Below the pieces are notes generated by a model. The model was given only the letters and a program-made list of their open reading frames with translations, had not been told where the DNA came from and did no database searches. Shown in pieces: positions 2,749 through 18,190 of a stretch of DNA of 64,000 bases. Numbering within the stretch: the first letter of the stretch is position 1; every line of letters begins with the position of its first letter. A program made the translations under genes and the position numbers. Source of the DNA: Candidatus Thorarchaeota archaeon (lineage in GTDB: Archaea; Asgardarchaeota; Thorarchaeia; Thorarchaeales; Thorarchaeaceae); NCBI GenBank assembly GCA_029855935.1, contig JAGSHN010000032.1, positions 1 to 64,000 of the forward strand, given 5' to 3'.

Positions 2749-3114
2749 ATGGGAGAAAAGACGTTAGGGTTCTTGCTCATGACGGGCCCCTACACCTTCG
2801 AGAACAGTATGACCTTCTACAAGCTGGCAAAAGCCGCAATTGAGAAGGGCTACGAGGTCAAGGTCTTCCTCTTTGTTGACGGAGTGAACAATGCCAAGCT
2901 GAATCAGGACCCGTCGCCAGAGGAGCCAATCAACGAGCTGTTTCAGGAGCTCGCAGACGCCGGTGTGGTCTTTCAGGCCTGCGGTCTGTGTACTGCCGCG
3001 AGGGGCTTCGACCAGACGGGCAAGGACTTCATACCGGGCGTCGAGGTGTCCGGCCTGACCGAGTTCGCAGAGATCGTCGGTGAGTGTGACAGATTGATCA
3101 CACTATCGGTCTGA
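2749..3114 (+). CDS. dsrE: DsrE/TusD-like sulfur relay protein
   Basis: GPY…VFLFVDGV…ACGLC…RG pattern; first of a three-gene DsrEFH-like operon. Confidence 0.82.
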   Translation: MGEKTLGFLLMTGPYTFENSMTFYKLAKAAIEKGYEVKVFLFVDGVNNAKLNQDPSPEEPINELFQELADAGVVFQACGLCTAARGFDQTGKDFIPGVEVSGLTEFAEIVGECDRLITLSV

Positions 3115-3128
3115 GGAGGTGCTTTCAA

Positions 3129-3479
3129 GTGGAGTTCACAGAGAGAAAGGTCTTGGTGATAGTACGGAGTCGCCCGTGGGGCATGATATTCAACTTCGAG
3201 GGTTGGCGTGCAGCAGTGGGTATGTTCGGAATGGATCACGAGCCCTCAATGCTGTTCCTCGGCGACGGTGTGTATGCTCTTCTCAAGTCGATGGATCAGA
3301 GACCGGTCAAGATGTTCAAGTCTACGTACGACAGTTTTGACGGCGTGATATACGCGAGCGCCCACTCTCTTGAGGAACGTAAGATCTCAAGGGATGAGCT
3401 GATAGACGGAGTCGAGGTCGTCGCAGACGAGGAGATGAGCAAGCTCTTCGAGGAGCACGACATCTCAGTGACGTTCTAG
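3129..3479 (+). CDS. dsrF: DsrF/TusC-like sulfur relay protein
   Basis: RSRPWG…EGWRAA…LFLGDGVY…SLEERKI…VTF C-terminus; operon position. Confidence 0.8.
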   Translation: MEFTERKVLVIVRSRPWGMIFNFEGWRAAVGMFGMDHEPSMLFLGDGVYALLKSMDQRPVKMFKSTYDSFDGVIYASAHSLEERKISRDELIDGVEVVADEEMSKLFEEHDISVTF

Positions 3480-3493
3480 GAGGTTGATGTGAG

Positions 3494-3793
3494 ATGAAGT
3501 TCCTCATCTGGTTGTCTGGTGAGTGTGTGAGTCTGAAAGAGGTAGTGGGGGCCCTGAGGGGTGCGGGCCATGAAGTTGGCATTCTTCTTGCTCAGAACGG
3601 TGTCTATCTGGCCGACAAGGGCTGTCCCTACGTAGAAGAGATTCTCGGCCTCGGTGTCACACTCTTTGCTTCAAGAGAGCATGCGGAGAGTCGGGGCGTC
3701 ATTGACCGGATGGTCACCGATGTCAAGCTTGTAGACTACTCCGAGATGGTCGATATCGTGATGGAGGAGTACGACCGCGTCATAACAGTGTAG
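3494..3793 (+). CDS. dsrH: DsrH/TusB-like sulfur relay protein
   Basis: ILLAQNGVY…AESRGV…VDYSEMVD…RVITV; operon position, GGAGG RBS. Confidence 0.78.
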   Translation: MKFLIWLSGECVSLKEVVGALRGAGHEVGILLAQNGVYLADKGCPYVEEILGLGVTLFASREHAESRGVIDRMVTDVKLVDYSEMVDIVMEEYDRVITV

Positions 3794-4469: not shown

Positions 4470-5357
4470 TCACAGGCCCCGAAAATACGACGGTCTAAGG
4501 GAACCCTCGTCACGGTCCTCCAGAACTCTATCAATGACTGCTATCATCCTCTCTCGGTCCGCACTCAGTGTTCCACGCAATGGAAGATAGTTGGACGCAT
4601 GATTTGTGCGGAACACACAGCGGCTCAGCCGAGTTCTCGATATCAACAGTCTGAGTTCCCTCAAGACATCGAACGGACCAAGCGGGGTGAACTCCCCTCT
4701 CTGCACAAGTTCGTAGAGTCGTGTTCCCCGCGGAATCATCAGTGTCAGTGCACCGACGTACTCGGGATCGATCTGGTTGAGCGCATCTGCGGTGGCTATT
4801 GCGTGCCATTCTGACCTCTCAGGACCGCCAAGGCCCAGAATGATTGTGAGCGACAGAGGGATCCTCGCCTTCCTGATCTTCTTGCACGCCCCTATGGTCT
4901 CTCTCACGGTCACTCCCTTTCGTACCCAGCGCAGGATCTCCTCGTCACCTGTCTCCAGACCGAGATAGATGATCCCGAGTCCCGCCTGTCTCAGTAAGGT
5001 CAGGTCGTCTATGCTCTTGTCCCGGAGGTTCCTTGCATAGGCGTAGGTCCCCACCCTCTCCAGGGCCGGGAGCTCCTTGCGCAGTACGTCCAGAACGGCA
5101 AGCATCTCCTCTGTTGGCATTGCAAGAGCATCGCCGTCTGCAAGGAAGACGCGTCTGATGTGGGTCTTCAGGGTGGAGGGGAGCTGATTGAGGTCCTGTC
5201 TGATTCCTGTTGCTCCTCGTATTCGGAACTTGCGGTCGAGGTATGAGACACAGAATATACAGGCATTATGCGAGCATCCGACGGTCGCCTGCAGGATGAG
5301 CGATCTTGCCTCACTCGGCGGTCTCCAGATAGTCCCCTCATATCTCAGCATCGTCAT
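4470..5357 (-). CDS. Radical SAM protein of unknown substrate
   Basis: RPPSEARSLILQATVGCSHNACIFC (CxxxCxxC), FLADGDAL, YLGLETG, NHASNY. Confidence 0.9.
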   Translation of the reverse strand: MTMLRYEGTIWRPPSEARSLILQATVGCSHNACIFCVSYLDRKFRIRGATGIRQDLNQLPSTLKTHIRRVFLADGDALAMPTEEMLAVLDVLRKELPALERVGTYAYARNLRDKSIDDLTLLRQAGLGIIYLGLETGDEEILRWVRKGVTVRETIGACKKIRKARIPLSLTIILGLGGPERSEWHAIATADALNQIDPEYVGALTLMIPRGTRLYELVQRGEFTPLGPFDVLRELRLLISRTRLSRCVFRTNHASNYLPLRGTLSADRERMIAVIDRVLEDRDEGSLRPSYFRGL

Positions 5358-5532
5358 ATCGCCTCTTGCAGGACTCTCGTTGCAGCTCTTGCACTCCCAT
5401 CACGGAGCGGGCGCTCTCACGGCATCCGTTCTTTGTCGTTCGGACTCCTTTGGGACCCACGCTCGTGATACCGTCATAATACGCACGTTTATGCGAACAT
5501 ATCACTCTTCTTATCAACTGGTCGTTGCAGAG

Positions 5533-6096
5533 ATGCGTGTTCCTGTCTACAAGGTCCTGCTCGTCGGCGATGCAAATGTTGGCAAGTCCAGTATGATTAG
5601 ACGACTTCTGCTCGACGAGTTCGATCCAGACTACAAGGCCACTGTCGGAGTGGACCTTAGTGCGGCTGCGTTGAACCTCGGTCCAGACCGGCCAGTCATT
5701 CTCACGCTCATAGACCTGGGTGGTCAGTCGGACTTCACCGCACTTAGGACACAATACTACAAGGGCGCGCACGCAGCCGTCTTCGTCTTCGATGTCTCCG
5801 ACCGCACGACATTCGATGACCTGGCCTTCTGGTACGAGGGCGTTCGTTCTAACGTCTTTCCCGCAGCAGGCGGCGAGCCTCTCTTGCTAGTGGTGGGAAA
5901 CAAATCCGATGTGCGGGAGTCGCGGGAGGTCTCCTCAGAGGAGGGCGCAGGCTTTGCAAGGCAGATTGGCGTTTCATATATAGAGACCAGTGCCAAGACC
6001 GGACACAACATCACCGAGCTATTCGAGATGGTGGCAGAGCAGGCATACGAGCGGTATCCACCGAGGCCGCCTGTCAAAGAAGTTGGTGACGTCTGA
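5533..6096 (+). CDS. Rab/Ras-like small GTPase
   Basis: G1 GDANVGKS, G2 ATVGVD, G3 DLGGQ, G4 NKSD, G5 SAK; start moved to ATG 5533. Confidence 0.92.
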   Translation: MRVPVYKVLLVGDANVGKSSMIRRLLLDEFDPDYKATVGVDLSAAALNLGPDRPVILTLIDLGGQSDFTALRTQYYKGAHAAVFVFDVSDRTTFDDLAFWYEGVRSNVFPAAGGEPLLLVVGNKSDVRESREVSSEEGAGFARQIGVSYIETSAKTGHNITELFEMVAEQAYERYPPRPPVKEVGDV

Positions 6097-6261
6097 GCTG
6101 GCTGTTGCCACATCATGTCAGCACCCGTTTCTGCTCCTTGCAACTAGGGCGACTAGGTGAACATCGGAGAGTCCGTTTCTCTAGCGTCTGACCGGGGCCT
6201 GCTCGGAGTGGCTCTCGCCACTTTGGTATTGTTCATCCGTATTGCCCGAATTGTGCAAGTG

Positions 6262-9099
6262 CTAATCCACAACCTCGGTGGGAAATGCTTTGAACCCGTC
6301 TACCGAATACACTACCTTCTGCTGGGGAACGAGCCTTAGGTTGTTGAATGGATCGGGTATCAGATACGGTCGAATCCCGGCCGAGTCAATCTCGACAACG
6401 AACAGGACGAAGCCCGAGCCGTACATAGCAGCCGAGCGATACTCGTTGTGTGTCATCACGGGGCGCGTCGCACCCTCAATCCCCTTCACCTCGACGCGCA
6501 CTATCTCGCCACGACCTCTACAGAACAGGTCGTATCCCACATTTCTCTTCGACACATCCTCTACCACATAGCCTCGCTCGACATAGTACTGAGTTGCGAC
6601 ATCCATTGCTATGGCCTCCACCTCATGGGGCAGGTGTTTCTCTCTCTCCTCTGTACTCACAACAAGGCCCCCGGCCGCCCGAAAGGCGACCTCGAAGAGG
6701 ACGGTATCATCGGTCACCTCCGCTTCTGTAGGGCGGGTTTGGGTGTGGTCCTTGAGCCGTAGTCTCAGTGTATCCCTCTTGTATGGCAGTAGGTCAGGGA
6801 CGGCGAGTTCGTTCTGCAGGCGTTCCTTCTCCTCCTCCCAGCGGGCCTGAACCCGTTCCAGCCACTCTCTTGAGAGCCTCTGTCGGATTTCCTCCAGAGG
6901 AGTAAACCGAACCGTCACGAGGGGCACGTCAGCGAAGACCGGGACGAGGCTCAATACACCCTGAAGGGTCAGAGCCCCTCCTGGTGTCACGAGGATTGGC
7001 TCCTGATACACTGTCTTGTTTCTCACACGAACACTGAGGACACGAACCTCTCCCCTCATGTCCCTGTCATAGGCGAACTGCACGGCGTCGGGCTCAACTC
7101 TTAGATTCTTTGCAGTCTCAATGGCCGCACGGATGCCCGCGTCATCGAGGGTGAGTCGCCGGACAGCAATGAACTCCGAGGGAGTGTGAACATGATAGGT
7201 GCTTATGACCGAGGAGTCATTCGAATCGGGGAGCGAGCCTGAGGCGTAACCGGCGTCTCTCAGCAGTGCGAGGAACAGACGGATGTCCCCCTCCGACACG
7301 GTGCCGTCAAGGTCAATCTGCGCAGACTGCTGTAAGTCCTCCACGCTCACCACCTGCGACAGCGACATGCTCTGCTCGAGTATCTCGATGACCTGTCTGC
7401 CCGTTTCACGTGTTCTCTTGAAGGCCTCCTCTATCCGTTCGACCACCTCGGTTTCGCCCTCTCCGACATGCGCATGCCGCACGAGGATGTCCACGCTCTC
7501 CATCTCGTCTCCGAAGATGCTGAGGCCCACCTCGCCAAACTCCTCGTTGATGGCCTGCACCTTCTCAAGGACAATCTCCATCACCCGTCGTTCGACTCCG
7601 AAGGCGGGCAGAAAGTTACGTATCTTGAGGACTCTATGCCTCTGACCGAGCCGCCATATCCTCCCGACACGCTGGATGTAGACCACGGGACTCCACGGCA
7701 CCTCATAATTGATCTCTGCGCTGGCGGCCTGAAGATTCAGAGACTCCGACATCGCGTCTGTGCCGAGCAGGATGTCAATGGTATTGTCCACAGCGAAGCT
7801 ATCCACAATACGCTGACGTTCCTCCAGTGAGACCTCGCCTGTTATCTGATATACTCTATAACCCTCCTGTTCGAGTACCCCTGCGAGATACCTCACTGTC
7901 TCGAGAAAACCCGTGTAGATGAGACACTTGTGCCCCTCTTCCCTCAGCTCGGCAACAGTTTCCAGCAGGCGTCTGCACTTGCTGTCCCGAGGCATCCTCT
8001 GAATGAGTTCGCGCCCCATCTCCAGCACGGGACGGAGGAGGCTCAGCTCGGTTTCTCTGGCCCCCCTCTCCTCAGGAACCATCCCGAGAAGCGCCTCGAC
8101 TTCCTGATCTGTCAGCTCCTCTCCTGAATAGAGTTTCTCCGTGATGTCTTCAAGGGCCTCCGACTCAAGTTCCACGCTCTCGGCGCCGAGTAGACGCAGT
8201 CTGCGCCTCTCAAGGAGTCGCACTCCGGCACGAATGCTGGAGGAGATGGCGCGCCCAATGAGGATAGCAATGAGTGCGCCCGCCCCCGAGGAGTTCCAGT
8301 GCGACTCGGCATATCTCTCTGCACTCCTGTAGAAATCCTCCTCGTACGCTGTGACAGGACACTCCACAACGGCCTCGTCAATCTCTTGATCGAACAGCGG
8401 ATGGTCGTTGCAGTCGAGCGCGGTGCGCTTCAGTCGACGGATGATGAGTGGCTCGGGAGCGATAATCCTCCTCCGGTACTCAAACCTGTCCGTGTTCCCA
8501 TCGTGCGGTGTTGCGGTCAGTGCAAGGAGACTCTTGACCCGCTGTGTGAGACTCTCCAAGAGTCGCCCCCTAAGATTCCCGGGGCTGACCCTATGGAACT
8601 CGTCTACCACCAGCAGGTCCCACGACTCCTGCTCGAAGAGCTTCCGCCAGCGACTCTTCTTCACGGTGTCAATGGAGGCAATCATTAGGTCGGCGATGCG
8701 GGGACCGTCGGTGTCGGGGACAAATCTCTCAAAATGGAGCGCGAACTTATCGCGGAGTTCCTCTTGGAACTGAGCGAGGACACTCGGAGGAGTCAGTATC
8801 AGTATCCTCGACTCCCCCAACGACAGGAGCTCCTTGATGATCATACTAGCAAGAATGGTCTTTCCCAGTCCGGTTTCGTAGGCAATGAGCGCACGGATGC
8901 TGCCTGTCCTGCGGTACTCTCTCATTAGGTACGCAAAGTCGTACAGCTGGTACGGCACGGCATCAATCTTTGATGAGAGGAACACTTTCAGCGGGTCGTA
9001 CCTGATCTTCGCATCGAGATAGTGGGCCATAAAGGCCGCCATGAACTTGGCGTACTGGGTGTAGGCGGTGTCTACATCGTCACTGTTGTTTGTCATCAT
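6262..9099 (-). CDS. SNF2-family helicase with C-terminal DUF3883 PD-(D/E)xK nuclease
   Basis: ETGLGKT, DEFH, LTATP, ESLNLQ, QRVGRIWRLGQ; C-terminal EAIAM…DVSKRNVGYD…VEVKG…NEY; start at MMTNN (9099 or 9096) after GAGGGG, overlapping the upstream MTase. Confidence 0.9.
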   Translation of the reverse strand: MMTNNSDDVDTAYTQYAKFMAAFMAHYLDAKIRYDPLKVFLSSKIDAVPYQLYDFAYLMREYRRTGSIRALIAYETGLGKTILASMIIKELLSLGESRILILTPPSVLAQFQEELRDKFALHFERFVPDTDGPRIADLMIASIDTVKKSRWRKLFEQESWDLLVVDEFHRVSPGNLRGRLLESLTQRVKSLLALTATPHDGNTDRFEYRRRIIAPEPLIIRRLKRTALDCNDHPLFDQEIDEAVVECPVTAYEEDFYRSAERYAESHWNSSGAGALIAILIGRAISSSIRAGVRLLERRRLRLLGAESVELESEALEDITEKLYSGEELTDQEVEALLGMVPEERGARETELSLLRPVLEMGRELIQRMPRDSKCRRLLETVAELREEGHKCLIYTGFLETVRYLAGVLEQEGYRVYQITGEVSLEERQRIVDSFAVDNTIDILLGTDAMSESLNLQAASAEINYEVPWSPVVYIQRVGRIWRLGQRHRVLKIRNFLPAFGVERRVMEIVLEKVQAINEEFGEVGLSIFGDEMESVDILVRHAHVGEGETEVVERIEEAFKRTRETGRQVIEILEQSMSLSQVVSVEDLQQSAQIDLDGTVSEGDIRLFLALLRDAGYASGSLPDSNDSSVISTYHVHTPSEFIAVRRLTLDDAGIRAAIETAKNLRVEPDAVQFAYDRDMRGEVRVLSVRVRNKTVYQEPILVTPGGALTLQGVLSLVPVFADVPLVTVRFTPLEEIRQRLSREWLERVQARWEEEKERLQNELAVPDLLPYKRDTLRLRLKDHTQTRPTEAEVTDDTVLFEVAFRAAGGLVVSTEEREKHLPHEVEAIAMDVATQYYVERGYVVEDVSKRNVGYDLFCRGRGEIVRVEVKGIEGATRPVMTHNEYRSAAMYGSGFVLFVVEIDSAGIRPYLIPDPFNNLRLVPQQKVVYSVDGFKAFPTEVVD

Positions 9100-11740
9100 C
9101 CCCCTCTGCCGCCTCCTCCGCATACGAGTCAACTGGATATTCTCTGATGTCGTGAATGCTGTCCCACTGCTCCACGAACCTTGCGCAGACCCTGCCCTCC
9201 TCGTAGTTCGTGTTGGTCTGAGCCATCTGAGCAAGTGACTGGATAACACGTAGAATTTTCTTCTGCGGATACGGCGACTCCCTGATAAGGCTCTCTGCAG
9301 AAACCATGCCGTGTCGGACATAGTCGCGCAGGACTATGTGTACGGCATCAATCAGGCTGTGAGGCATCACAGGGTCAACACCGTTGACCTCGAAAGGTCC
9401 CCTTTCTGAGAAGTCGAGCAGACGACACCTGCTCCGGTCGTCAGGCAGACGACTGATGATGCCTGCGACACTAGTCTCTTCTACGCCCAGCGCCTTGAGC
9501 ACTTGATTGAGTTCTGTGAACGGGAACTCATTCACCCCTGCGTAGCGGAACCAGAGGTAGAGTGCGGTCTTGGGGTCCGCATCGTGAACGCCGAGACCGT
9601 GACTCGCAAAGAGGTCGATCACGTACCTCTGACCGAGTTCGAGTGCAAACTCGGCCGTGCTTCTGTTGAACGACCGTATATTCGAGTAGCGCGTTATCAC
9701 CTCAAGGATGACACCCGTGGCTGCGACCAGTAGGCTCGTCCTGTCTTCGCCATAGGTCTCTAGGAGGGAGGGGAATCGCGCGGAGAGCTTCTCGCGAATC
9801 TCATCTTCGAGGTCGAGCAGGTCAATTGTTCGGCCGGACTGACGCTTCCTTGCAGTTATCAGAAGAGAATGGAATACAGGCGACTTGTCGAAGAATATTG
9901 GCAGTGACCCACCCTCGGTGCGCAATGTGTGTGTGGAAGTCACCTGAAACCCCGCAGTTCTGAGAGACTCGATCACGTATTTCCAGCCTGTGACACGCCT
10001 GTGGACGTAGAACATGACGAGGAGTCCGTCGTCCTCTAGCAGTTCATAGAGTCTATGTATTGCAAGACGCATCCTCGACTCGAAATCGGCTTCGGTACGG
10101 CGTGTCTTGGGACTCATACCTACACTAAGTTCCTCGCTTGTTTCAGGTATCGCCGAGATGTTGAGAAGGTTTCCAGCCACCCTACTGTACCATACCTGAT
10201 AAAACTGCATCAGCTCAGGGTATTGGACATCGTTATAGTATGGGGGATCTGTTACAATCAGCGAGAATCTTTGAGCTGGCTTCCATGACAAGACAGACTC
10301 ATTGACTATCGAGATTCTTGGACTCATACGAGGATGTTCGAGACTCTCACTTGGGCCACATAGAGCAGTGATGGCGTACTCCAAACCTCTCAATACCCCC
10401 TCAATACTGTTGAGGAGAGAACCTGCTGTCCTAGCAAACGGATTGACCTCTACGTGATTCCATATCATTCCAATCCGGCGAGTCTTGAAGGCGTATCTCG
10501 TCGCTTTTGCTCCACTGTCCCAAGAGGCGGCCCGGTTATTGCACATAAGGTGTCTTGAGAAAGTCATCAAGAGGTAGGTACCAACTGCGGCCGCGTAGTC
10601 GGGATCCCGTTTGCGGATACTCTCCACCGATTCGTGAATCCCTCTTGCCATAAGCGCGTGGACGAGAAGCTGCCGCGGGCTAAACAGTCTGTACCAGTAT
10701 CTCAGATACCGACGGGACCATATCTCATATGGCATCTCCTCACTTGGGATGTAGGACGCCAGTTCATCCATGTTCTGGCTCAACAACTCTTGGGCAGCAT
10801 TGAGCGCCGCGTGGTCTTGCTCTGTAGGCAGCACAAATCGTCCGTCCTCTAGGTAAGCTGCCAAGAGCATCTCCCGCGCGTTTCTTGAGATATCGGCCAC
10901 AATATGGTCGTTTGAGATTTCCATGCCGCAGCCGGGATAGATACACCGGCCCTTGCCACCACCACAGTTTCCTTTCTGAGGTTTGGAACCAGCTACTATC
11001 TTGAAGACAAGATCGTCCCCCTTCGTTTCATAGGCCAAGGAAATGCCTCTGGCCGCGTCCAGCCGCCAGTTGTGCACAAGTGGTACCAACCTCCTACAGT
11101 GGGGACACTCAACGGCCCACGCATAGAAGTACACGCGCGGCCGAACTCCATCGTGGGGGGGATACAAGTTGGACAGACTGTCCTCCAAGTTTCGGAATAT
11201 CCGCTCGGCACAGTCCCTGACATCAGAAAGGAGTTGACTCGTGCCATCCTGACTATGAATCTGGCGGCCATATCTCAGGGGGTACTGCAAGGTACCCCTC
11301 ATGATCAGACACGCAATGGGATTGTAGTCCAGTGCGACAACATTCAATCCGAGACGCAATGCCTCGAACGGGATTGTACCCGCACCTGCGAAAGGATCCA
11401 GTACAACAATATTCCTATGATGGCCCGTGTCCCTCACGGCCCTCACCAGAGATTCAGGAACTGTCTTGTACGCCCGACGTCTTAGGGCGGAATCGACACC
11501 GAGAAGGTCAACTACCTTCGAAGGTTTGTCAACATCATTTGGGGATAGGAGTGCAGCTGCAATGGCCAGTCGTGCCATTATGAGCGGTTTTCTCGTGAAG
11601 TAATGATGAAACTCCACGATTGGTGGGCCCGCCCTTTTCTCCTTCTCGACCTCCTTGTTGAGGAGTGCAACAGGTACCCCTGCCTCGAGGAGGCTCCGTG
11701 GCGGAGTTTCAATAGTGTTTTCTCCCTTGCCCCGCCTCAC
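9080..11740 (-). CDS. DUF1156-containing amino (likely m6A) DNA methyltransferase, copy 1
   Basis: HHYFTRKPL DUF1156 motif, DPFAGAG SAM-binding motif, CPHC…C Zn-ribbon insert, TDPPYY catalytic motif. Confidence 0.9.
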   Translation of the reverse strand: MRRGKGENTIETPPRSLLEAGVPVALLNKEVEKEKRAGPPIVEFHHYFTRKPLIMARLAIAAALLSPNDVDKPSKVVDLLGVDSALRRRAYKTVPESLVRAVRDTGHHRNIVVLDPFAGAGTIPFEALRLGLNVVALDYNPIACLIMRGTLQYPLRYGRQIHSQDGTSQLLSDVRDCAERIFRNLEDSLSNLYPPHDGVRPRVYFYAWAVECPHCRRLVPLVHNWRLDAARGISLAYETKGDDLVFKIVAGSKPQKGNCGGGKGRCIYPGCGMEISNDHIVADISRNAREMLLAAYLEDGRFVLPTEQDHAALNAAQELLSQNMDELASYIPSEEMPYEIWSRRYLRYWYRLFSPRQLLVHALMARGIHESVESIRKRDPDYAAAVGTYLLMTFSRHLMCNNRAASWDSGAKATRYAFKTRRIGMIWNHVEVNPFARTAGSLLNSIEGVLRGLEYAITALCGPSESLEHPRMSPRISIVNESVLSWKPAQRFSLIVTDPPYYNDVQYPELMQFYQVWYSRVAGNLLNISAIPETSEELSVGMSPKTRRTEADFESRMRLAIHRLYELLEDDGLLVMFYVHRRVTGWKYVIESLRTAGFQVTSTHTLRTEGGSLPIFFDKSPVFHSLLITARKRQSGRTIDLLDLEDEIREKLSARFPSLLETYGEDRTSLLVAATGVILEVITRYSNIRSFNRSTAEFALELGQRYVIDLFASHGLGVHDADPKTALYLWFRYAGVNEFPFTELNQVLKALGVEETSVAGIISRLPDDRSRCRLLDFSERGPFEVNGVDPVMPHSLIDAVHIVLRDYVRHGMVSAESLIRESPYPQKKILRVIQSLAQMAQTNTNYEEGRVCARFVEQWDSIHDIREYPVDSYAEEAAEGDDDKQQ

Positions 11741-12162
11741 CGTCGCATATTCCTCCGCGAACGCATATGGATTGTCTTGAAGGCGCGTATTGCGTCCCGG
11801 CCATAGGTATTGTACTGCCAGTTCCAGAATATTGCCTCCTCAAGAGTGATTCGACGCATGGCCTCGAGAAACCGGGGCGCCTCCTGTGGCGATCTCAGAC
11901 TATTGAGAACCTTCAGTGCCAGTCTGAGACGATATCCTCTTTCGCGTTCGTTTCTGTCACGCGACGCCCGCTCCACGGCTTCAAGGAGTGGCACCCTCCA
12001 GTCCCGAACGGCTCCCATCACATTCTGCTCGGACAAGAAGTGTTGAACCAGCCGTACGGTCTGTGCAGTGCGGTGGAGTGTGTACGTGCAGTTGTCATAA
12101 AGTGCCGTTGTTGCACGAGGAATACGACCTGATGATGATGGGGCCCGGTATGATGTTGCCAC
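11737..12162 (-). CDS. Small basic accessory subunit of the DUF499 system (DUF3780-like by position)
   Basis: GTG at 12162 overlaps the DUF499 stop and its stop overlaps the MTase start; C-terminal LEEAIFW…AIRAFK helix motif. Confidence 0.65.
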   Translation of the reverse strand: MATSYRAPSSSGRIPRATTALYDNCTYTLHRTAQTVRLVQHFLSEQNVMGAVRDWRVPLLEAVERASRDRNERERGYRLRLALKVLNSLRSPQEAPRFLEAMRRITLEEAIFWNWQYNTYGRDAIRAFKTIHMRSRRNMRR

Positions 12163-14885
12163 TATGACCCCTCCTCGCGAATGTACAGTCTGATCGTGAC
12201 TCTTGTTCCTGGCAGGAGGTGCGCGCCTCTCCTCGACATCCACTGGGCCAGTTCTTTCACCAGATTTATCTCGCTGATATCTCCCGCAACTATGTTGCCC
12301 GTCAGGGCCCCGCGAAACTCGAACTCCGCCCGCGCCTCTCCTCGATGTTCCAGAAGCACTCTCGTGATACGTGAGTCGAGCTCTGTGAAGAAGTTTGCAA
12401 TCGGGACCTCTACAGACTCTAGTCGCTCGTCCGCCCGCGCGGATGTCAACGTGGTTTGACGGTCTGCTGCGGGCGACGACTTGTCGACGGCAGTTTCCTG
12501 GATGGTCGGACTGACCTGCTTCGAGTCAATGGTTGCCACATGCGGACTCTCCGCGGCTGCAGTGATTCTGGCCTCAGCCCGTCTTGTGCGAATCTCGCGT
12601 GCCAGTTCTTCAGTGACAACCGTGTCCCCGTCATGTACGCTGACGTTCATCTCTCGATAGTGCAGTACCAGCTCTGTGTCGTCGGCGGATGTGAAGTCGC
12701 CCTCAACAAGGCCGATCACACCCTGATAGACCGCCTCCGCAACCATCGACCGGACCTGGCTGGGCGTTGCGAAGGGGATTCCGAGCATCGAGTCGACATC
12801 CTCAAGGAGTTGACGCACCTGCACGTGGCTTCTTGCACCTATCAGCGCAGTGACATAGGTTCCTATGTCCATGTTAACAGGGTCGAATACCTTGTCGACC
12901 TCTCGGAGCCGCGATACGACGGTCGCGCACATAGTCCTGTTTTGGACAGGATGGACAGAGCACACTCGTTTCTTTGACTGGCTCAGATACTTCATCTTGG
13001 TGTACATTCCTCTAAACGTCTGGAGCGCCTGCGCCTCTTTAGCCTGTGCAATGGATTCGGCCTCCCTCTTCTCTCGCTTGTCACTGAGAGTCCTCATAAC
13101 GCGTAGTGCTGCCAGGTGATGTCTGCTGAAGTCCTCAAGTGGCCGCCCCATAGTGACATCGGGAATCATCACCACGACCGTGTTTCTCCGTCTTCCTGTT
13201 ATCTCCAGCATATCCTCCACAATTGCGTCGACGTTCTCCCAGTAGAGGGGGACAACGATGTTAAGTTTCCCGTGGGAAGGGACTAGGCCCTTGTGGTGAC
13301 GAAGGAAAAGACACACATCATCCTCTCCAGAAGAGGTCTCAAAGACGGTCGGGAACAGCGTTTTCTCCACATACTGTCGCACTTCTGTACTGCTTATCTG
13401 ACCCTTGCGATGGCGTATCAGATTAGGGACATTAGGTCGTGACTTGAACCAGTATCTCTTCTTGCCGGGATCTCCTGCCTGAGAACTCCAGAGAAATGTG
13501 GAGTATTCCATAAAGAAGGTTTCGATGATTCGTGCCATGTCGGCTTTTCCAACAATGTCAGGGAGGCAGCGGAGCAACTCATCGGGAGTAGCACCCTGCC
13601 TATCCGGGTCGGGGTGGAGCGAGTACAGGAACAGGGCGGCTGTTGCCCGCCCAAAGATACCGAAGCGCTTCCCACTATCCGCCTCACGCGCAGCGGTCAC
13701 CACATCCTTTGTGACGGCCTGTCTCAGTCCGGTCCCGAAGACGTTGGGATCCGTCAGAATCGCCACAAGGTCAGGATCATCAAAGAGGAGCTCAGCAGGG
13801 GATATCATCAGGCTCTCCACATCGTCCACGTGACGTAGAATACCTTTTATCCCCAGCGCGACGACCTTCAACGCATCCCGAGTCTGTTGGAAATCCCGGT
13901 ATAGGGACACTCGAGAATACAGAACATCTATGAGCGCGGGATGAAAGGGGTAGCTGCCGATGCAATCGAGTCCGGTCTTCTTTCCGACCTCGTTCTCCAC
14001 CGCCTTGGCCAGTTCTGCATCAATATAGTCCACAAGTCGTTTCTTCAGAATGGCTGTGAAGTCCGCCTCACCTACGGGTTGAATTGGCTGTGTGACACGC
14101 CCGAATAGCGACGCCATATCGGACTCATCGGTGGTGGTCGCAACAGCCTCGATAATGCCTGAAACGTAAGCCGCCTCCTCATCGTATACGCCCGTCCCCT
14201 TGGCGACCGCAACGACTAGAAGACAGTTGTCTGTCGAGTTTACAGCCTCTATGAACGTATGAAGATGTGCCTTCTCTTGTGTCTTCTGCTTGTCGTCAAG
14301 CTTTGCCGTGTACACGACAATCTCGTCGATGAGAAACACAACTGGTCGGCCCTCGTCCGACAACCGCTTGCGAGTTTCCTCCTTTGTGGGTGCCAGATAC
14401 TTCCCCAACACTGGGTCCTTTGTCAAAGGATATTGCAGGTTGTGGCCGTCTACCGCGACCACTTTCGCGTCCGGGACCTCCTCGATGCCAATGGTCGCCA
14501 GAATCTGAGGGTCTGGTACCCGCCGAGATGTGAATACGTGGTACAGCATCACCAGCAGGTGACTCTTCCCCCCGCCAAAGCCTGTCGCCAGATGGATGAC
14601 AGCTTTTTTTCCGATGCCCGCGGTTCGTGCGAGCGACCATTGGAGCACATCGAGCATCCGCGTCGTCAACACAGTTATCTCAAAGAACCTGTTTGGGTCA
14701 CGATACTCTGCGTGGCCGCGTCCCCGAATTACCTCTGAGAAGTCGACCTCGAAGACTTCGGGCGAGAAGTCCTTCAGCCAAGGCTTGAACCGAAGTCTTC
14801 GACTCTTGATTGCTTCGCCAAGCGATACAGCTTCGCTCCCTCTTACCATCCTGTTGATAGCCTCCTTTCCAGAATGCGGACTCAC
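12162..14885 (-). CDS. DUF499 AAA+ ATPase (BrxC-related)
   Basis: Y.DP..FF..T..T N-terminal motif, Walker A GFGGGKSH, Walker B FLIDE, SYPFHP, FQQTRDAL. Confidence 0.9.
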   Translation of the reverse strand: MSPHSGKEAINRMVRGSEAVSLGEAIKSRRLRFKPWLKDFSPEVFEVDFSEVIRGRGHAEYRDPNRFFEITVLTTRMLDVLQWSLARTAGIGKKAVIHLATGFGGGKSHLLVMLYHVFTSRRVPDPQILATIGIEEVPDAKVVAVDGHNLQYPLTKDPVLGKYLAPTKEETRKRLSDEGRPVVFLIDEIVVYTAKLDDKQKTQEKAHLHTFIEAVNSTDNCLLVVAVAKGTGVYDEEAAYVSGIIEAVATTTDESDMASLFGRVTQPIQPVGEADFTAILKKRLVDYIDAELAKAVENEVGKKTGLDCIGSYPFHPALIDVLYSRVSLYRDFQQTRDALKVVALGIKGILRHVDDVESLMISPAELLFDDPDLVAILTDPNVFGTGLRQAVTKDVVTAAREADSGKRFGIFGRATAALFLYSLHPDPDRQGATPDELLRCLPDIVGKADMARIIETFFMEYSTFLWSSQAGDPGKKRYWFKSRPNVPNLIRHRKGQISSTEVRQYVEKTLFPTVFETSSGEDDVCLFLRHHKGLVPSHGKLNIVVPLYWENVDAIVEDMLEITGRRRNTVVVMIPDVTMGRPLEDFSRHHLAALRVMRTLSDKREKREAESIAQAKEAQALQTFRGMYTKMKYLSQSKKRVCSVHPVQNRTMCATVVSRLREVDKVFDPVNMDIGTYVTALIGARSHVQVRQLLEDVDSMLGIPFATPSQVRSMVAEAVYQGVIGLVEGDFTSADDTELVLHYREMNVSVHDGDTVVTEELAREIRTRRAEARITAAAESPHVATIDSKQVSPTIQETAVDKSSPAADRQTTLTSARADERLESVEVPIANFFTELDSRITRVLLEHRGEARAEFEFRGALTGNIVAGDISEINLVKELAQWMSRRGAHLLPGTRVTIRLYIREEGS

Positions 14886-14931
14886 CTACTGGCCGTGATC
14901 CCGGACTTGTGCAGTCAGAACAAACGGCAGC

Positions 14932-14945
14932 ATATAATATTTCGT
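14932..14945 (-). promoter_or_regulatory. Candidate archaeal BRE/TATA promoter for the DUF499-to-helicase operon
   Basis: Minus strand reads ACGAAATATTATAT ~50 nt upstream of the DUF499 start, in the 148-bp gap after MTase copy 2. Confidence 0.45.
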
Positions 14946-15033
14946 TGCTGGTGCCTGGACCTATACCCTTCGAGAAACAATATCCCGCATCTCTGTTTCA
15001 GAATACCCTACGAGTCGCAACTAGAAAAGTCGG

Positions 15034-17712
15034 CTATTGACAACCATCGATACTATCCTCTGTTTGGTCCCAGTTCTCAATGTCATCGTCTAGCGCTGAC
15101 TGTATGAACCCGTCAACAGGGTATGTCCGGATGTTATGGATTGCCGCCCACTGGTGCACGAACCGTGCGCATATGGTTCCTTCGTCATAGCCCGTCGTAG
15201 TTCTACTCATCTTTGCCAGCGATTCTATTGTCTTGAGGATACTCTCCTGTGGATGTGGGAGCACTTGTATGAGGTTCTCAGCAGCCACGATACCATTCCG
15301 GACATACTCTCTGAGAACTGCGTGTACCGCGTCGATTAGGCTCTGTGGCCGGAGTGATTCGGCGCCGCTATTCTCGAAGGGCCCTCTCTCCGTGAAGTCA
15401 AGAAGACGGACTGTGCTGCGCTTGTCCGTCGTACGGTCGATAAGATCTGAGATGACCCATTCTTCAACTCCTAGTACTCTGAGTACCTGATTGAGCTCTG
15501 CTGATGGGAACTCGCTACGGCCAGCGTAGCGGAACCAGAGGTAGAGCATAGTTCTCGGATCGGCCTGATGAATATTGAGACCATACTTGGCGAATAGCTC
15601 GATCACGTATCTCTGACCAATCTCAAGGGCGTAGTCTGAGGTTCTCTTCGTGAATGATCGTATCTCAGAGTATCCTGTGATGACCTCTAGCACAACGCCC
15701 GTCGCTGCGACTAACAGGCTTGTCCTATCCTCTCCATAGGTTTCGATAAGTGACGGAAACCGTCGAAGCAGTTTTTCACGGATAGCTTCTTCCAACTTCA
15801 AGACGTCAATGGTTTGGTCACTGTGCCGTTTGCGGGCTGTTATCAAGAGCGAGTGGAAAACAGCCGACTTGTCGATGACAATGGGTCCTGTTCCGCTCTC
15901 TGTGCGAAGGGTATGAGTGGAGGTCACCTGAAAGCCGGCATTCCGCAGGGCCTCGACGACGTACTTCCAACCAGCCACACTTTTGTGAACATAGAACATG
16001 ACCAACAGTCCGTCGTCTTTCAGGAGGTTGTGGAGCTGGTGAATCGCGACATTCATCCGTGACTCGAACTCGGCGGTTGAGCGGTTAGTTCTCTTGCTTG
16101 ATCCCACGCTCAGCTCTTCGCTTGTTTCAGGAACAGGTGGGATGTCCAGCACGTGTCCCAAGATTCGACTATACCACACCTGATAGAATTGCAGCAGTTC
16201 TGGATATTGGACATCATTGTAGTACGGCGGGTCAGTTACGATAAGGTCGAACTTCCGAGAAGTTTCCCAAGAAAGTATGGACTGATTGATTACTGTCACG
16301 TCGCCAGCTACATCCTGTTGCTCGAAACTACCGTTTGGGCCACAGAGGGCTTCGACTGCATACTCGAGCCCACTCAATACATTCGCAATACTGTTCGAGA
16401 GCGCGCCAGCTGTCTTGGCAAAAGGATTGACTTCGCAGTGATTCCACATCATACTAACCCTACGCGTTGAAAACGGATGCGCTATCTTCCTAAACCCGCT
16501 GTCCCAAATCGTTGCCCGATTGTTGCGCATAAGATGTTTCGAAAAGACCATCGACAGGTATGTTCCGATTACTACAGCATAGTCGGGATCCTCTTGGGAA
16601 ACCCGGTCAACAATCTGGCGAATCTTCCTTGCCATAAGCGCGAGTACAACCAACTGGCGGGCGTTGAATAGCCTGTGCCAATATAGGAGGTACTTTCGAG
16701 CCGGTATCTCGTGGGTCATCTCCTCTGTAGGGATATAGGGTGACAAGGTGTCCATATTCTGTTCCAGAAATTTCTTTGCCCGAGCTAGCGCATCATAGTC
16801 TTCTTTGCGCGGGGTCACAAACTCCCCGTTTTCCAGATAAATGGCTACGAGCATTTCTCGTTCGTTCTGCGAGATGTCTGTCACAACGTACTCGTTTGGG
16901 ATTTCAGTTCCGCAGTCCTCGTAGATGCATCGGGCCTTCCCTCCTCTGCAGTTTCCTCTTACTGGTGTCGGTCCCGTTTCAACACGAAACGTAAGTTGTT
17001 CTCCCTCCGTTCTCTGGGCCAGAACAATGCCCCTGGGTCGGTCGAGATCCCAGCGCTGCATGAGAGGCACAATCCGTTTGCAGTGGGGACATTTGACAGC
17101 CCAAGCGTGAATGTACACGCGCGGTTTCCTTCTTCTATAAGAAGGATAGAACTGCGTCAGCTGTTCTCTTAGGTCCTTGTAGACTTCATTTGCATACTTC
17201 TCTACGTCTGCGATGAGTTGGCTGACTCCACTCCGTATGTTCATTCTGTGACCATATCTTAAAGGGTACTCAAGGGTCCCCCTCATCACGAGGCACGCTA
17301 CCGGATTATAGTCCAAAGCGACTACGTTCAGTCCCATACGTAACGCTTCAAAGGGAATCATCCCCGCGCCTGCAAAGGGATCGAGCATCGCGAAATCTGT
17401 GCCGATTGCCTTGCGAACCGCTTTCAACAGTGCACTTGGCATTCTCCGATACGCACGTTCACGGTTTGTGCGTCCTACGCCAAGTAGCTCAAGAAACTTG
17501 GAAGAGTCTTTCAGCCGCATCGGGGGGAGCAGTGCTGCAGCAATCGCCAGCCTCGACATAATGAGAGGTTTCCGAGTGAAGTAATAGTGCAGCTTTGTAA
17601 TTGGGGGCACTGCGTTCTTTTCTTTCCTTGCCTCCTCATTCACCTCTGCAACCGGCACTCCCGACTCAAGCAGGCTCCGCGCCATCTGTCTGTTTCTCTC
17701 TTCATCGCCCAT
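15034..17712 (-). CDS. DUF1156-containing amino (likely m6A) DNA methyltransferase, copy 2
   Basis: HYYFTRKPL, DPFAGAG, CPHC…C, TDPPYY; AGGAGG RBS upstream; collinear with copy 1 along its whole length. Confidence 0.9.
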   Translation of the reverse strand: MGDEERNRQMARSLLESGVPVAEVNEEARKEKNAVPPITKLHYYFTRKPLIMSRLAIAAALLPPMRLKDSSKFLELLGVGRTNRERAYRRMPSALLKAVRKAIGTDFAMLDPFAGAGMIPFEALRMGLNVVALDYNPVACLVMRGTLEYPLRYGHRMNIRSGVSQLIADVEKYANEVYKDLREQLTQFYPSYRRRKPRVYIHAWAVKCPHCKRIVPLMQRWDLDRPRGIVLAQRTEGEQLTFRVETGPTPVRGNCRGGKARCIYEDCGTEIPNEYVVTDISQNEREMLVAIYLENGEFVTPRKEDYDALARAKKFLEQNMDTLSPYIPTEEMTHEIPARKYLLYWHRLFNARQLVVLALMARKIRQIVDRVSQEDPDYAVVIGTYLSMVFSKHLMRNNRATIWDSGFRKIAHPFSTRRVSMMWNHCEVNPFAKTAGALSNSIANVLSGLEYAVEALCGPNGSFEQQDVAGDVTVINQSILSWETSRKFDLIVTDPPYYNDVQYPELLQFYQVWYSRILGHVLDIPPVPETSEELSVGSSKRTNRSTAEFESRMNVAIHQLHNLLKDDGLLVMFYVHKSVAGWKYVVEALRNAGFQVTSTHTLRTESGTGPIVIDKSAVFHSLLITARKRHSDQTIDVLKLEEAIREKLLRRFPSLIETYGEDRTSLLVAATGVVLEVITGYSEIRSFTKRTSDYALEIGQRYVIELFAKYGLNIHQADPRTMLYLWFRYAGRSEFPSAELNQVLRVLGVEEWVISDLIDRTTDKRSTVRLLDFTERGPFENSGAESLRPQSLIDAVHAVLREYVRNGIVAAENLIQVLPHPQESILKTIESLAKMSRTTTGYDEGTICARFVHQWAAIHNIRTYPVDGFIQSALDDDIENWDQTEDSIDGCQ

Positions 17713-18190
17713 TAGCCAGCGACCCCTCCTGCAGACTGTTTCGAAATAACTAACTGGCTCCTATCAGAAGAATCTTTCTTCCACGTCTTGGAAAGATACC
17801 CGCCAATAATGATATTTCTCATCCGTACGAGTTGAACTGTAAACGTGCACTGCCAAGTTGGGCTGAGAAAGACTTTGGCGAAACTATTGTGGCAATCATT
17901 TCGTACACATGGAGTGTACGGAGTTCCTCTCAAGGGGTCTGCCCGGCTCAATCCCTCGACCTGGATCTCCAGCATCTTTTCGCTTCAATCTCGGAGGAGA
18001 TACATTGCTATCGAGGCTGATCACCCGAATCAAGTGGTGTAGCGTGCCGATTTCGTTGCAAGCGTTTTGCCGTCAAAGGTGTATCAACTTCTCAGCTTAG
18101 CTGGGAAACGCTCAATCAGTAGCACTTAATACTGCCCCCCACGCAACTCCCCTCTGCAACCATTCTGGCCTGAAGAGAGAGGACTGTGAG

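Follow-up and report, generated by a model that had tools for sequence, protein, structure and literature searches.

DUF499-centred systems related to BREX, referred to as BREX-related (BR) systems, have been split into three types (PMC12839542). Type 1 is equivalent to Hma (PMC8565338) and consists of three genes, with a restriction endonuclease (REase) at the C-terminus of the helicase; it was described with an N-terminal TUDOR domain on this helicase and with three core genes only (PMC12839542). In Type 2, which corresponds to Gao_RL, DUF3780 is added and the helicase carries an N-terminal HKD nuclease, and Type 3 has PglZ (PMC12839542). The question of how self is distinguished from non-self in DUF499/Hma systems has not been answered by the one experimental study available, which was unable to demonstrate a role for the methyltransferase (MTase): HmaA of Halomonas protected against T4 on its own, by means of its nickase activity, over-expressed HmaB left T4 infectivity unchanged, and the roles of the MTase and the ATPase were left open (PMC11232893). 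Moreover, loci with an hma gene present twice were discarded in the Hma 'embedding' preprint (Payne et al. 2024). Here, we describe a locus from a Candidatus Thorarchaeota archaeon (assembly GCA_029855935.1, contig JAGSHN010000032.1, positions 1 to 64,000, a stretch of 64,000 nucleotides (nt) hereafter called the window), in which two diverged and intact DUF1156-type MTases, MT1 and MT2, accompany one DUF499 ATPase and one helicase-nuclease. Natural loci with two or three such MTases beside a single ATPase and helicase-nuclease constitute a ready-made test of the specificity question. The locus does not amount to a new system but represents a useful variant within the known DUF499/Hma family, a mosaic DUF499-DUF7680 subtype with the MTase duplicated in an unusual upstream position. 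It leaves the general picture of prokaryotic immunity unchanged and refines a known family.

The locus comprises five co-oriented genes, as proposed in the first-pass annotation of this DNA, all intact and all on the minus strand; gene content and intactness were read directly, and gene starts were refined by the presence of a GGAGG motif 7–13 nt upstream of the start codon. In the direction of transcription, the extra paralogue MT2, a DUF1156-type DNA amino-methyltransferase with its own GGAGG and ATG start (15034..17712, 892 amino acids (aa)), is followed by a DUF499 AAA+/STAND-type ATPase that resembles HmaC (12162..14849, 895 aa), a small conserved subunit akin to DUF7680 (11737..12162, 141 aa), MT1, also a DUF1156-type DNA amino-methyltransferase and occupying the canonical in-operon position (9080..11740, 886 aa), and a HmaA-like effector, a Snf2-family helicase with a C-terminal DUF3883/NOV_C nuclease of the PD-(D/E)xK type (6262..9099, start at 9099 or 9096, ~945 aa). 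The order of the last four genes, DUF499–DUF7680-like–MTase–helicase, including the small protein, is kept in ~18 related loci, and the window locus can be placed with them in a small archaeal clade, mostly composed of Bathyarchaeia and Methanosuratincola.

These four genes overlap. The GTG start of the small protein and the TAG stop of DUF499 have one base in common, the small protein and MT1 meet in a start/stop overlap of 4 nt (GTGA), and the start of the helicase-nuclease overlaps MT1 by 17–20 nt. The overlaps reported at first are thus real and measure 1, 4 and ~20 nt, whereas the larger sizes then given were an artefact of using the longest open reading frames (ORFs). MT2 is set apart from the DUF499 gene by a spacer of 184 nt (14850..15033, minus strand, read from the sequence). 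A T-run closely follows the MT2 stop, the DUF499 start is preceded by an AT-rich, TATA-like stretch (~14932-14942), and the spacer may hold an internal archaeal promoter. An 87-aa ORF at 17712-17975, in the spacer upstream of the block of genes, gave no family match (Pfam, PADLOC) and was treated as spurious.

Both MTases are full-length and match DUF1156 and N6_N4_Mtase in Pfam. MT2 contains DPFAGAG at 111 (motif I), a CPHC zinc ribbon at 208 and DPPY at 494 (motif IV), and the same three elements are found at 115, 212 and 498 in MT1; the intact DPFAGAG and DPPY motifs noticed in the first reading are therefore present in the two copies, with a zinc ribbon in addition. MT1 and MT2 are 61% identical in amino acids over their full length and form sister branches (support 100/100) in a tree of the clade MTases; a search among 5.8 billion proteins returned nothing closer to MT2 than 51%. 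At the DNA level they are 62% identical, with 68%, 80% and 38% identity at codon positions 1, 2 and 3, respectively; non-synonymous divergence (dN) is 0.30 and synonymous divergence (dS) is saturated. Identical runs reach 23 nt at most, and the longest repeat common to both genes is 149 nt at 71% identity.

We then considered the 121 positions that are invariant among the 16 other MTases of the clade. MT1 and MT2 each keep 117 of them, and the losses are conservative, two being common to both copies. Since these residues were kept despite saturated synonymous sites, both genes are held by selection. Moreover, the DNA identity of 62%, the saturated dS and the 23-nt longest run indicate an old duplication, with no recent gene conversion and no assembly artefact. 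Recombinational 'specificity shuffling' between the copies is ruled out by the lengths of the repeat and of the identical run given above. Identity between MT1 and MT2 is lowest in the long insert that separates motif I from motif IV (down to 28–38% around residues 160–200) and highest in the C-terminal half. Across four independent paralogue pairs, residues ~160–560 are least alike and the C-terminal halves most alike.

To which described type the locus comes closest was assessed with profile models. In Pfam, the ATPase matches DUF499 (9e-18), and the helicase matches ResIII, SNF2, Helicase_C and NOV_C (DUF3883). With PADLOC, the two MTases score 3e-47 and 3e-49 against HmaB, the former value being that of MT2; the ATPase scores 9e-39 against HmaC versus 2e-17 against the RL DUF499 model, and the helicase 6e-63 against BrxH, 2e-52 against HmaA and 2e-21 against RL PLD_Helicase. 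The DUF499 protein shares only ~25% identity with typical members. Its Walker A (GGGKS, 92–96) and Walker B (DE, 175–176) motifs are invariant in the clade alignment, as are GLGKT, DExH, QRVGR and the nuclease residues D857...E870-x-K872 across 13 clade helicases. HmaA, HmaB and HmaC lie together on the minus strand within 11.5 kb, in agreement with the PADLOC definition of Hma; the two HmaB-type genes break the rule, applied in the curation of Payne et al. 2024, that each hma gene occurs once.

The locus had initially been identified as Gao_RL. It is indeed DUF499-centred, BREX-related and restriction-like, but membership in Gao_RL did not stand. No DUF3780 (PF12635) match was obtained for the small protein, its 18 clade relatives or 37 wider homologues (the latter from a profile search of a set of 1.8 billion proteins), and no PLDc match was found by Pfam in the helicase. 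With the NCBIfam Gao_RL equivalogs, scores of 168, 77 and 121 bits were obtained, far under the respective cut-offs of 1000, 1200 and 1100; PADLOC PLD_Helicase and NCBIfam phospholipD_antiphage match the helicase core only (121 bits versus a cut-off of 1100), and the Hma models fit better. The standalone PglZ with iSTAND expected of a Type-3 BR system is likewise missing, as PglZ was matched by none of the five genes in Pfam. BREX Type 5 is recognised by PglZ, BrxC, BrxA and BrxB together with two PglX-type MTases, and PglZ, BrxA and BrxB genes were not found either; the PglX match in PADLOC is weak (5e-13) beside that of HmaB, and the doubled MTase is the only feature in common with BREX Type 5.

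Comparison with each described system points to a composite architecture. Like Hma (Type-1 BR, PMC8565338 and PMC12839542), the island combines the DUF499 ATPase with an N6-type MTase of the DUF1156 kind and a Snf2 helicase bearing a DUF3883/NOV_C PD-(D/E)xK nuclease at its C-terminus, and the Hma models are its best system-specific PADLOC matches. The fused C-terminal REase, a core trait of Type 1, is thus present, while no Pfam match was obtained N-terminal of the helicase core (Pfam only, no structural test). Unlike Hma, the gene order is reversed, with the ATPase first and the helicase last instead of the helicase, MTase, ATPase order of other Asgard Hma loci; a DUF7680-like gene, a conserved fourth gene outside the Type-1 description, is located between the ATPase and the MTase; and the MTase is present twice. 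With Gao_RL (Type-2 BR) the island has in common the order ATPase, small protein, MTase, helicase and the small fourth subunit, but this subunit is DUF7680-like instead of DUF3780, and the nuclease is a C-terminal NOV_C instead of phospholipase D (PLD). Judged by these features, the locus is a mosaic of a Type-1 kind of effector with a Type-2 gene order and small fourth gene. Haloarchaeal plasmid loci of the form DUF499-DUF7680-DUF1156-PLD/Snf2 (for example that of Halosimplex aquaticum NZ_CP118160.1, locus L029) show the same four-gene order, with DUF7680 (3e-36) in the same slot; they differ by an N-terminal PLD nuclease on the helicase and a single MTase, and their proteins are only ~24% identical to those of the window.

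The small protein deserves a closer examination. It is kept at 31–47% identity in the same slot of 18 related loci, and PF24728 (DUF7680) is matched by 14 of the 19 clade relatives and 16 of the 37 wider homologues (best E 2e-9). The window protein itself reaches 18.7 bits (E 0.002), under the Pfam gathering cut-off of 24 bits, and its hhalign comparison with a haloarchaeal DUF7680 member gave E 0.0012 with a probability of 20%. Bona fide DUF7680 proteins occupy the same slot in the haloarchaeal plasmid locus and in metagenomic loci. An AlphaFold2 model (predicted local distance difference test score, pLDDT, 85) consists of an alpha+beta fold with 3 strands and 5 helices, for which nothing convincing was found in the PDB (Foldseek) or the ESM Atlas (template-modelling score, TM, <0.4; E >0.1). 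These similarities identify the protein as a putative divergent member of the DUF7680 family. DUF7680 was not mentioned in the literature searched, and the locus gives this family a context, that of a conserved fourth subunit in an archaeal branch of DUF499 systems.

Two MTases are present in 3 of the 18 clade loci (the window, G402 and L059), and the 15 others have a single one; the 18 are those with one or both MTase positions readable, and ~16 are informative. By surveying DUF499 loci we found five multi-MTase loci besides that of the window (G402/L003+L031, L059, L060/L061, L062/L063 and G714), three of which are tandem, so that the arrangement is not unique and is less unusual than the first-pass annotation had supposed. 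Loci with extra MTases are not described in the BR and Hma papers searched. In the Bathyarchaeon G402, DUF499 is immediately preceded by an MTase, which a contig break interrupts right at its DPPY motif; as this MTase is closest to that of another genome, it is of independent origin. L059 (7051-17970) carries two 65%-identical MTases in tandem inside the overlapping operon, and distant DUF499-DUF7680 loci have tandem pairs that are 62% (L060/L061, L060:6435-16023) and 78% identical (L062/L063, L062:203-6505). The tandem MTases of L059, L060 and L062 are translationally coupled, and both copies are each other's closest relatives. In every pair, the copies differ most in the recognition insert. 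Recurrent duplication would account for this pattern, and so would concerted evolution, with the insert diversifying.

The search was extended to 401 Thermoproteota genomes, among which DUF1156 was found in 72, one of them (G714) with three MTases. At this locus (G714:C1:1397400-1413500, L052/L053), three intact paralogues of 913, 917 and 935 aa, 52–59% identical and with two of them divergently oriented, adjoin one DUF499 ATPase and one nuclease-less Snf2 helicase; a gene of the metallo-beta-lactamase/RMMBL type may supply the nuclease. In plasmids, 181 PLSDB records contained a relative, and the four multi-match records that were opened had their copies in separate loci.

A characterised analogue does exist, although the first-pass annotation knew of no such example: in Haloarcula hispanica, the Type V BREX MTases BrxX1 and BrxX2, which are 53% identical, independently methylate GTAYCCG and GACCCC, and the loss of either one abolishes defence (bioRxiv 10.64898/2026.04.28.721311). 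Like the window locus, this system is archaeal and methylation-based, with two paralogous MTases that have diverged to a comparable degree (53% versus 61% here) and a Snf2-type helicase (BrxHII). It differs by PglZ, BrxA, BrxB, two BrxC ATPases and a PglX-type m4C MTase, and is without DUF499, DUF1156 and DUF7680. Type V BREX is thus an analogous solution and no homologous operon. More generally, Type I restriction-modification (RM) loci with several hsdS genes and Type IIS RM systems with two MTases also supply a single translocase/nuclease with two or more modification components that bear specificity. The protein families involved there are unrelated to those of the island, in which the whole MTase would be the specificity element.

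The five genes make up the whole of an inserted block of ~12 kb (6100..18190), located between a Ras-like GTPase gene and tldD. In a genome of the same genus, G313, the radical-SAM, Ras-like GTPase and tldD genes are adjacent, with a gap of ~300 bp where the window has ~12 kb; because this site is empty in G313, the block is an insertion. A scan with the HmaB model indicated that the island MTase is absent from all four same-genus genomes. No integrase, tRNA gene, target-site duplication or flanking direct repeat was found at the borders. The closest relatives of all island proteins come from Bathyarchaeia, Methanosuratincola and unbinned metagenome contigs, at 39–51% identity, which points to horizontal acquisition. 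On the evidence of its sequence, the block is a horizontally acquired, intact and well-delimited island of the restriction-modification-like kind, predicted to act against viruses, and Asgard archaea exchange such islands with Bathyarchaeia-type and Methanosuratincola-type donors. An assembly chimera, a possibility raised in the first-pass annotation, was not borne out, the flanks being syntenic with G313 and the DNA identity of MT1 and MT2 being only 62%.

From these observations, we propose the following model. The MTase, with its large target-recognition insert and zinc ribbon between motifs I and IV, would mark host DNA at a short asymmetric motif and would also confer sequence specificity on the machine. 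Assembly or licensing of the complex on unmarked DNA would fall to the DUF499 ATPase, probably together with the small subunit, and the helicase-nuclease would then translocate along this DNA and cut it. The second MTase was gained by the old duplication, after which both copies remained under purifying selection and diverged most in the recognition insert. We infer that both enzymes methylate DNA, each recognising its own motif, and that they share one ATPase/helicase-nuclease as effector, so that a wider range of foreign DNA would be targeted. This dual specificity with a common effector is, in our judgement, the probable explanation of the locus, and it is preferred because of the analogy with Type V BREX and the evidence of selection on both copies. 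Should each MTase prove to determine both a methylated motif and a restriction target of its own, specificity would reside in the MTase for the entire machine, as in BREX.

Several points weigh on the other side. Across the whole clade, no part of the MTase is less conserved than the recognition insert, so that the divergence of MT1 and MT2 in this region is expected and gives no proof of different motifs. MT2 lies behind the 184-nt spacer, may be transcribed separately and could act independently of the operon. The role of the MTase is unproven in Hma itself, where HmaA alone defends and over-expression of HmaB is without effect on T4 infectivity (PMC11232893), and the BREX precedent is an analogy drawn from a different family, having PglZ and BrxC. 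Finally, the organism is known only as a metagenome-assembled genome (MAG).

A broader proposal can be made, which we advance tentatively and would not be surprised to see fail. DUF499-DUF7680-MTase-helicase operons could represent a distinct, undescribed archaeal BR subtype with a Type-2-like layout and either a PLD or a NOV_C nuclease, in which the whole MTase serves as a specificity subunit that can be exchanged. Recurrent duplication or capture of MTases, followed by divergence of the recognition insert, might then be the general route of this lineage to multi-specific defence, with one ATPase/helicase-nuclease programmed by two or three MTases.

Among the other explanations, the one that survives best, though we regard it as unlikely, takes MT2 as an uncoupled orphan MTase, involved in epigenetic regulation or in protection from the related systems of competitors and feeding no specificity to the DUF499/helicase-nuclease pair. 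The 184-nt spacer, the ribosome-binding site of its own and the possible promoter set MT2 apart from the overlapping four-gene operon, and other Asgard genomes commonly carry isolated DUF1156-type MTases, without DUF499 or a helicase within ~9 kb. However, MT2 resides in the same discrete inserted block as the operon, the layout with an upstream MTase arose independently in G402, and the extra MTase is found inside the operon in L059, L060 and L062; in Type V BREX, moreover, both MTases serve defence.

It is less likely still that MT1 and MT2 act on one asymmetric site, each on one strand or as a heterodimer, and so provide a single specificity. A pair of strand-specific MTases is well established in Type IIS RM systems, and the conservation of all catalytic motifs in both copies would agree with such a division of labour. 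Yet most clade loci examined (15/18) have a single MTase, which indicates that the system can do without a pair of strand-specific enzymes, the two MTases of the characterised BREX have independent motifs, and the three paralogues of G714 do not fit a two-strand logic. That MT2 is the inactive remnant of a decayed second system, or an assembly or binning artefact, is very improbable: although the genome is a MAG and the GC content of MT2 is 0.51 compared with 0.54–0.57 for the rest of the island, an open frame of 892 codons with all motifs and 117/121 invariant residues after synonymous saturation denotes purifying selection, two copies only 62% identical in DNA, with no identical run beyond 23 nt, are not the product of strain collapse, and host genes syntenic with G313 flank the island on both sides within a contig reported as 454 kb long. 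Dual specificity with a shared ATPase/helicase-nuclease thus remains the explanation that we retain for the two MTases.

Regarding the host, the Asgard-type genome assumed at first is confirmed by a neighbouring M32 carboxypeptidase, which is 74% identical to proteins named Candidatus Thorarchaeota, and by flanking Ras-family GTPase and leucine-rich repeat (LRR) genes. The Ras-family small GTPase gene beside the island (5188-6096, plus strand; Pfam Ras 1e-40) probably has its true start further inside, its G313 orthologue being 194 aa long. The LRR protein gene is located at 1533-2606 on the minus strand, and the combination of a Ras GTPase with LRR is typical Asgard content. A three-gene DsrE/DsrF/DsrH-like cluster of the TusBCD type (sulfur relay) is found at 2749-3793 on the plus strand, followed by DUF22 and radical-SAM genes. 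Several related loci lie beside other defence-type genes (L009:4754-8392, L002:7317-9683, L007:6478-9030 and L060:1770-5244), which include an AAA_30/UvrD_C_2 helicase, an SMC/Rad50-like ATPase, a second Snf2 helicase, and GmrSD_N/HNH and Schlafen-AlbA_2 proteins. These loci look like defence islands, and the window has a bare insertion.

As for the distribution in Asgard archaea, where the first-pass annotation had been aware of no example, helicase-MTase-DUF499 loci of the Hma type, each with one MTase, were found in 6 of the 20 regions fetched from other Asgard genomes, that is, in at least six other genomes of those sampled. No paper pairing DUF499 with Asgard archaea was found in the literature searched; the presence of DUF499/Hma loci in these archaea is nonetheless no novelty. 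Many of the other fetched regions contain stand-alone DUF1156 MTases. In one genus (g36 of family f11, loci L034-L047), nearly every genome has a DUF1156-type MTase of ~880 aa with no DUF499 or Snf2 helicase within ~9 kb, and these enzymes appear to be lineage-conserved orphan MTases. It should be noted that the raw tally obtained with the HmaB model over 400 Asgard genomes (103/400) overstates true HmaB, because ~730-aa proteins of the host family match only model positions ~570–810. These host-family (f1) proteins, of ~720–760 aa, occur in 55 of the 85 f1 genomes and share the C-terminal half of the MTase.

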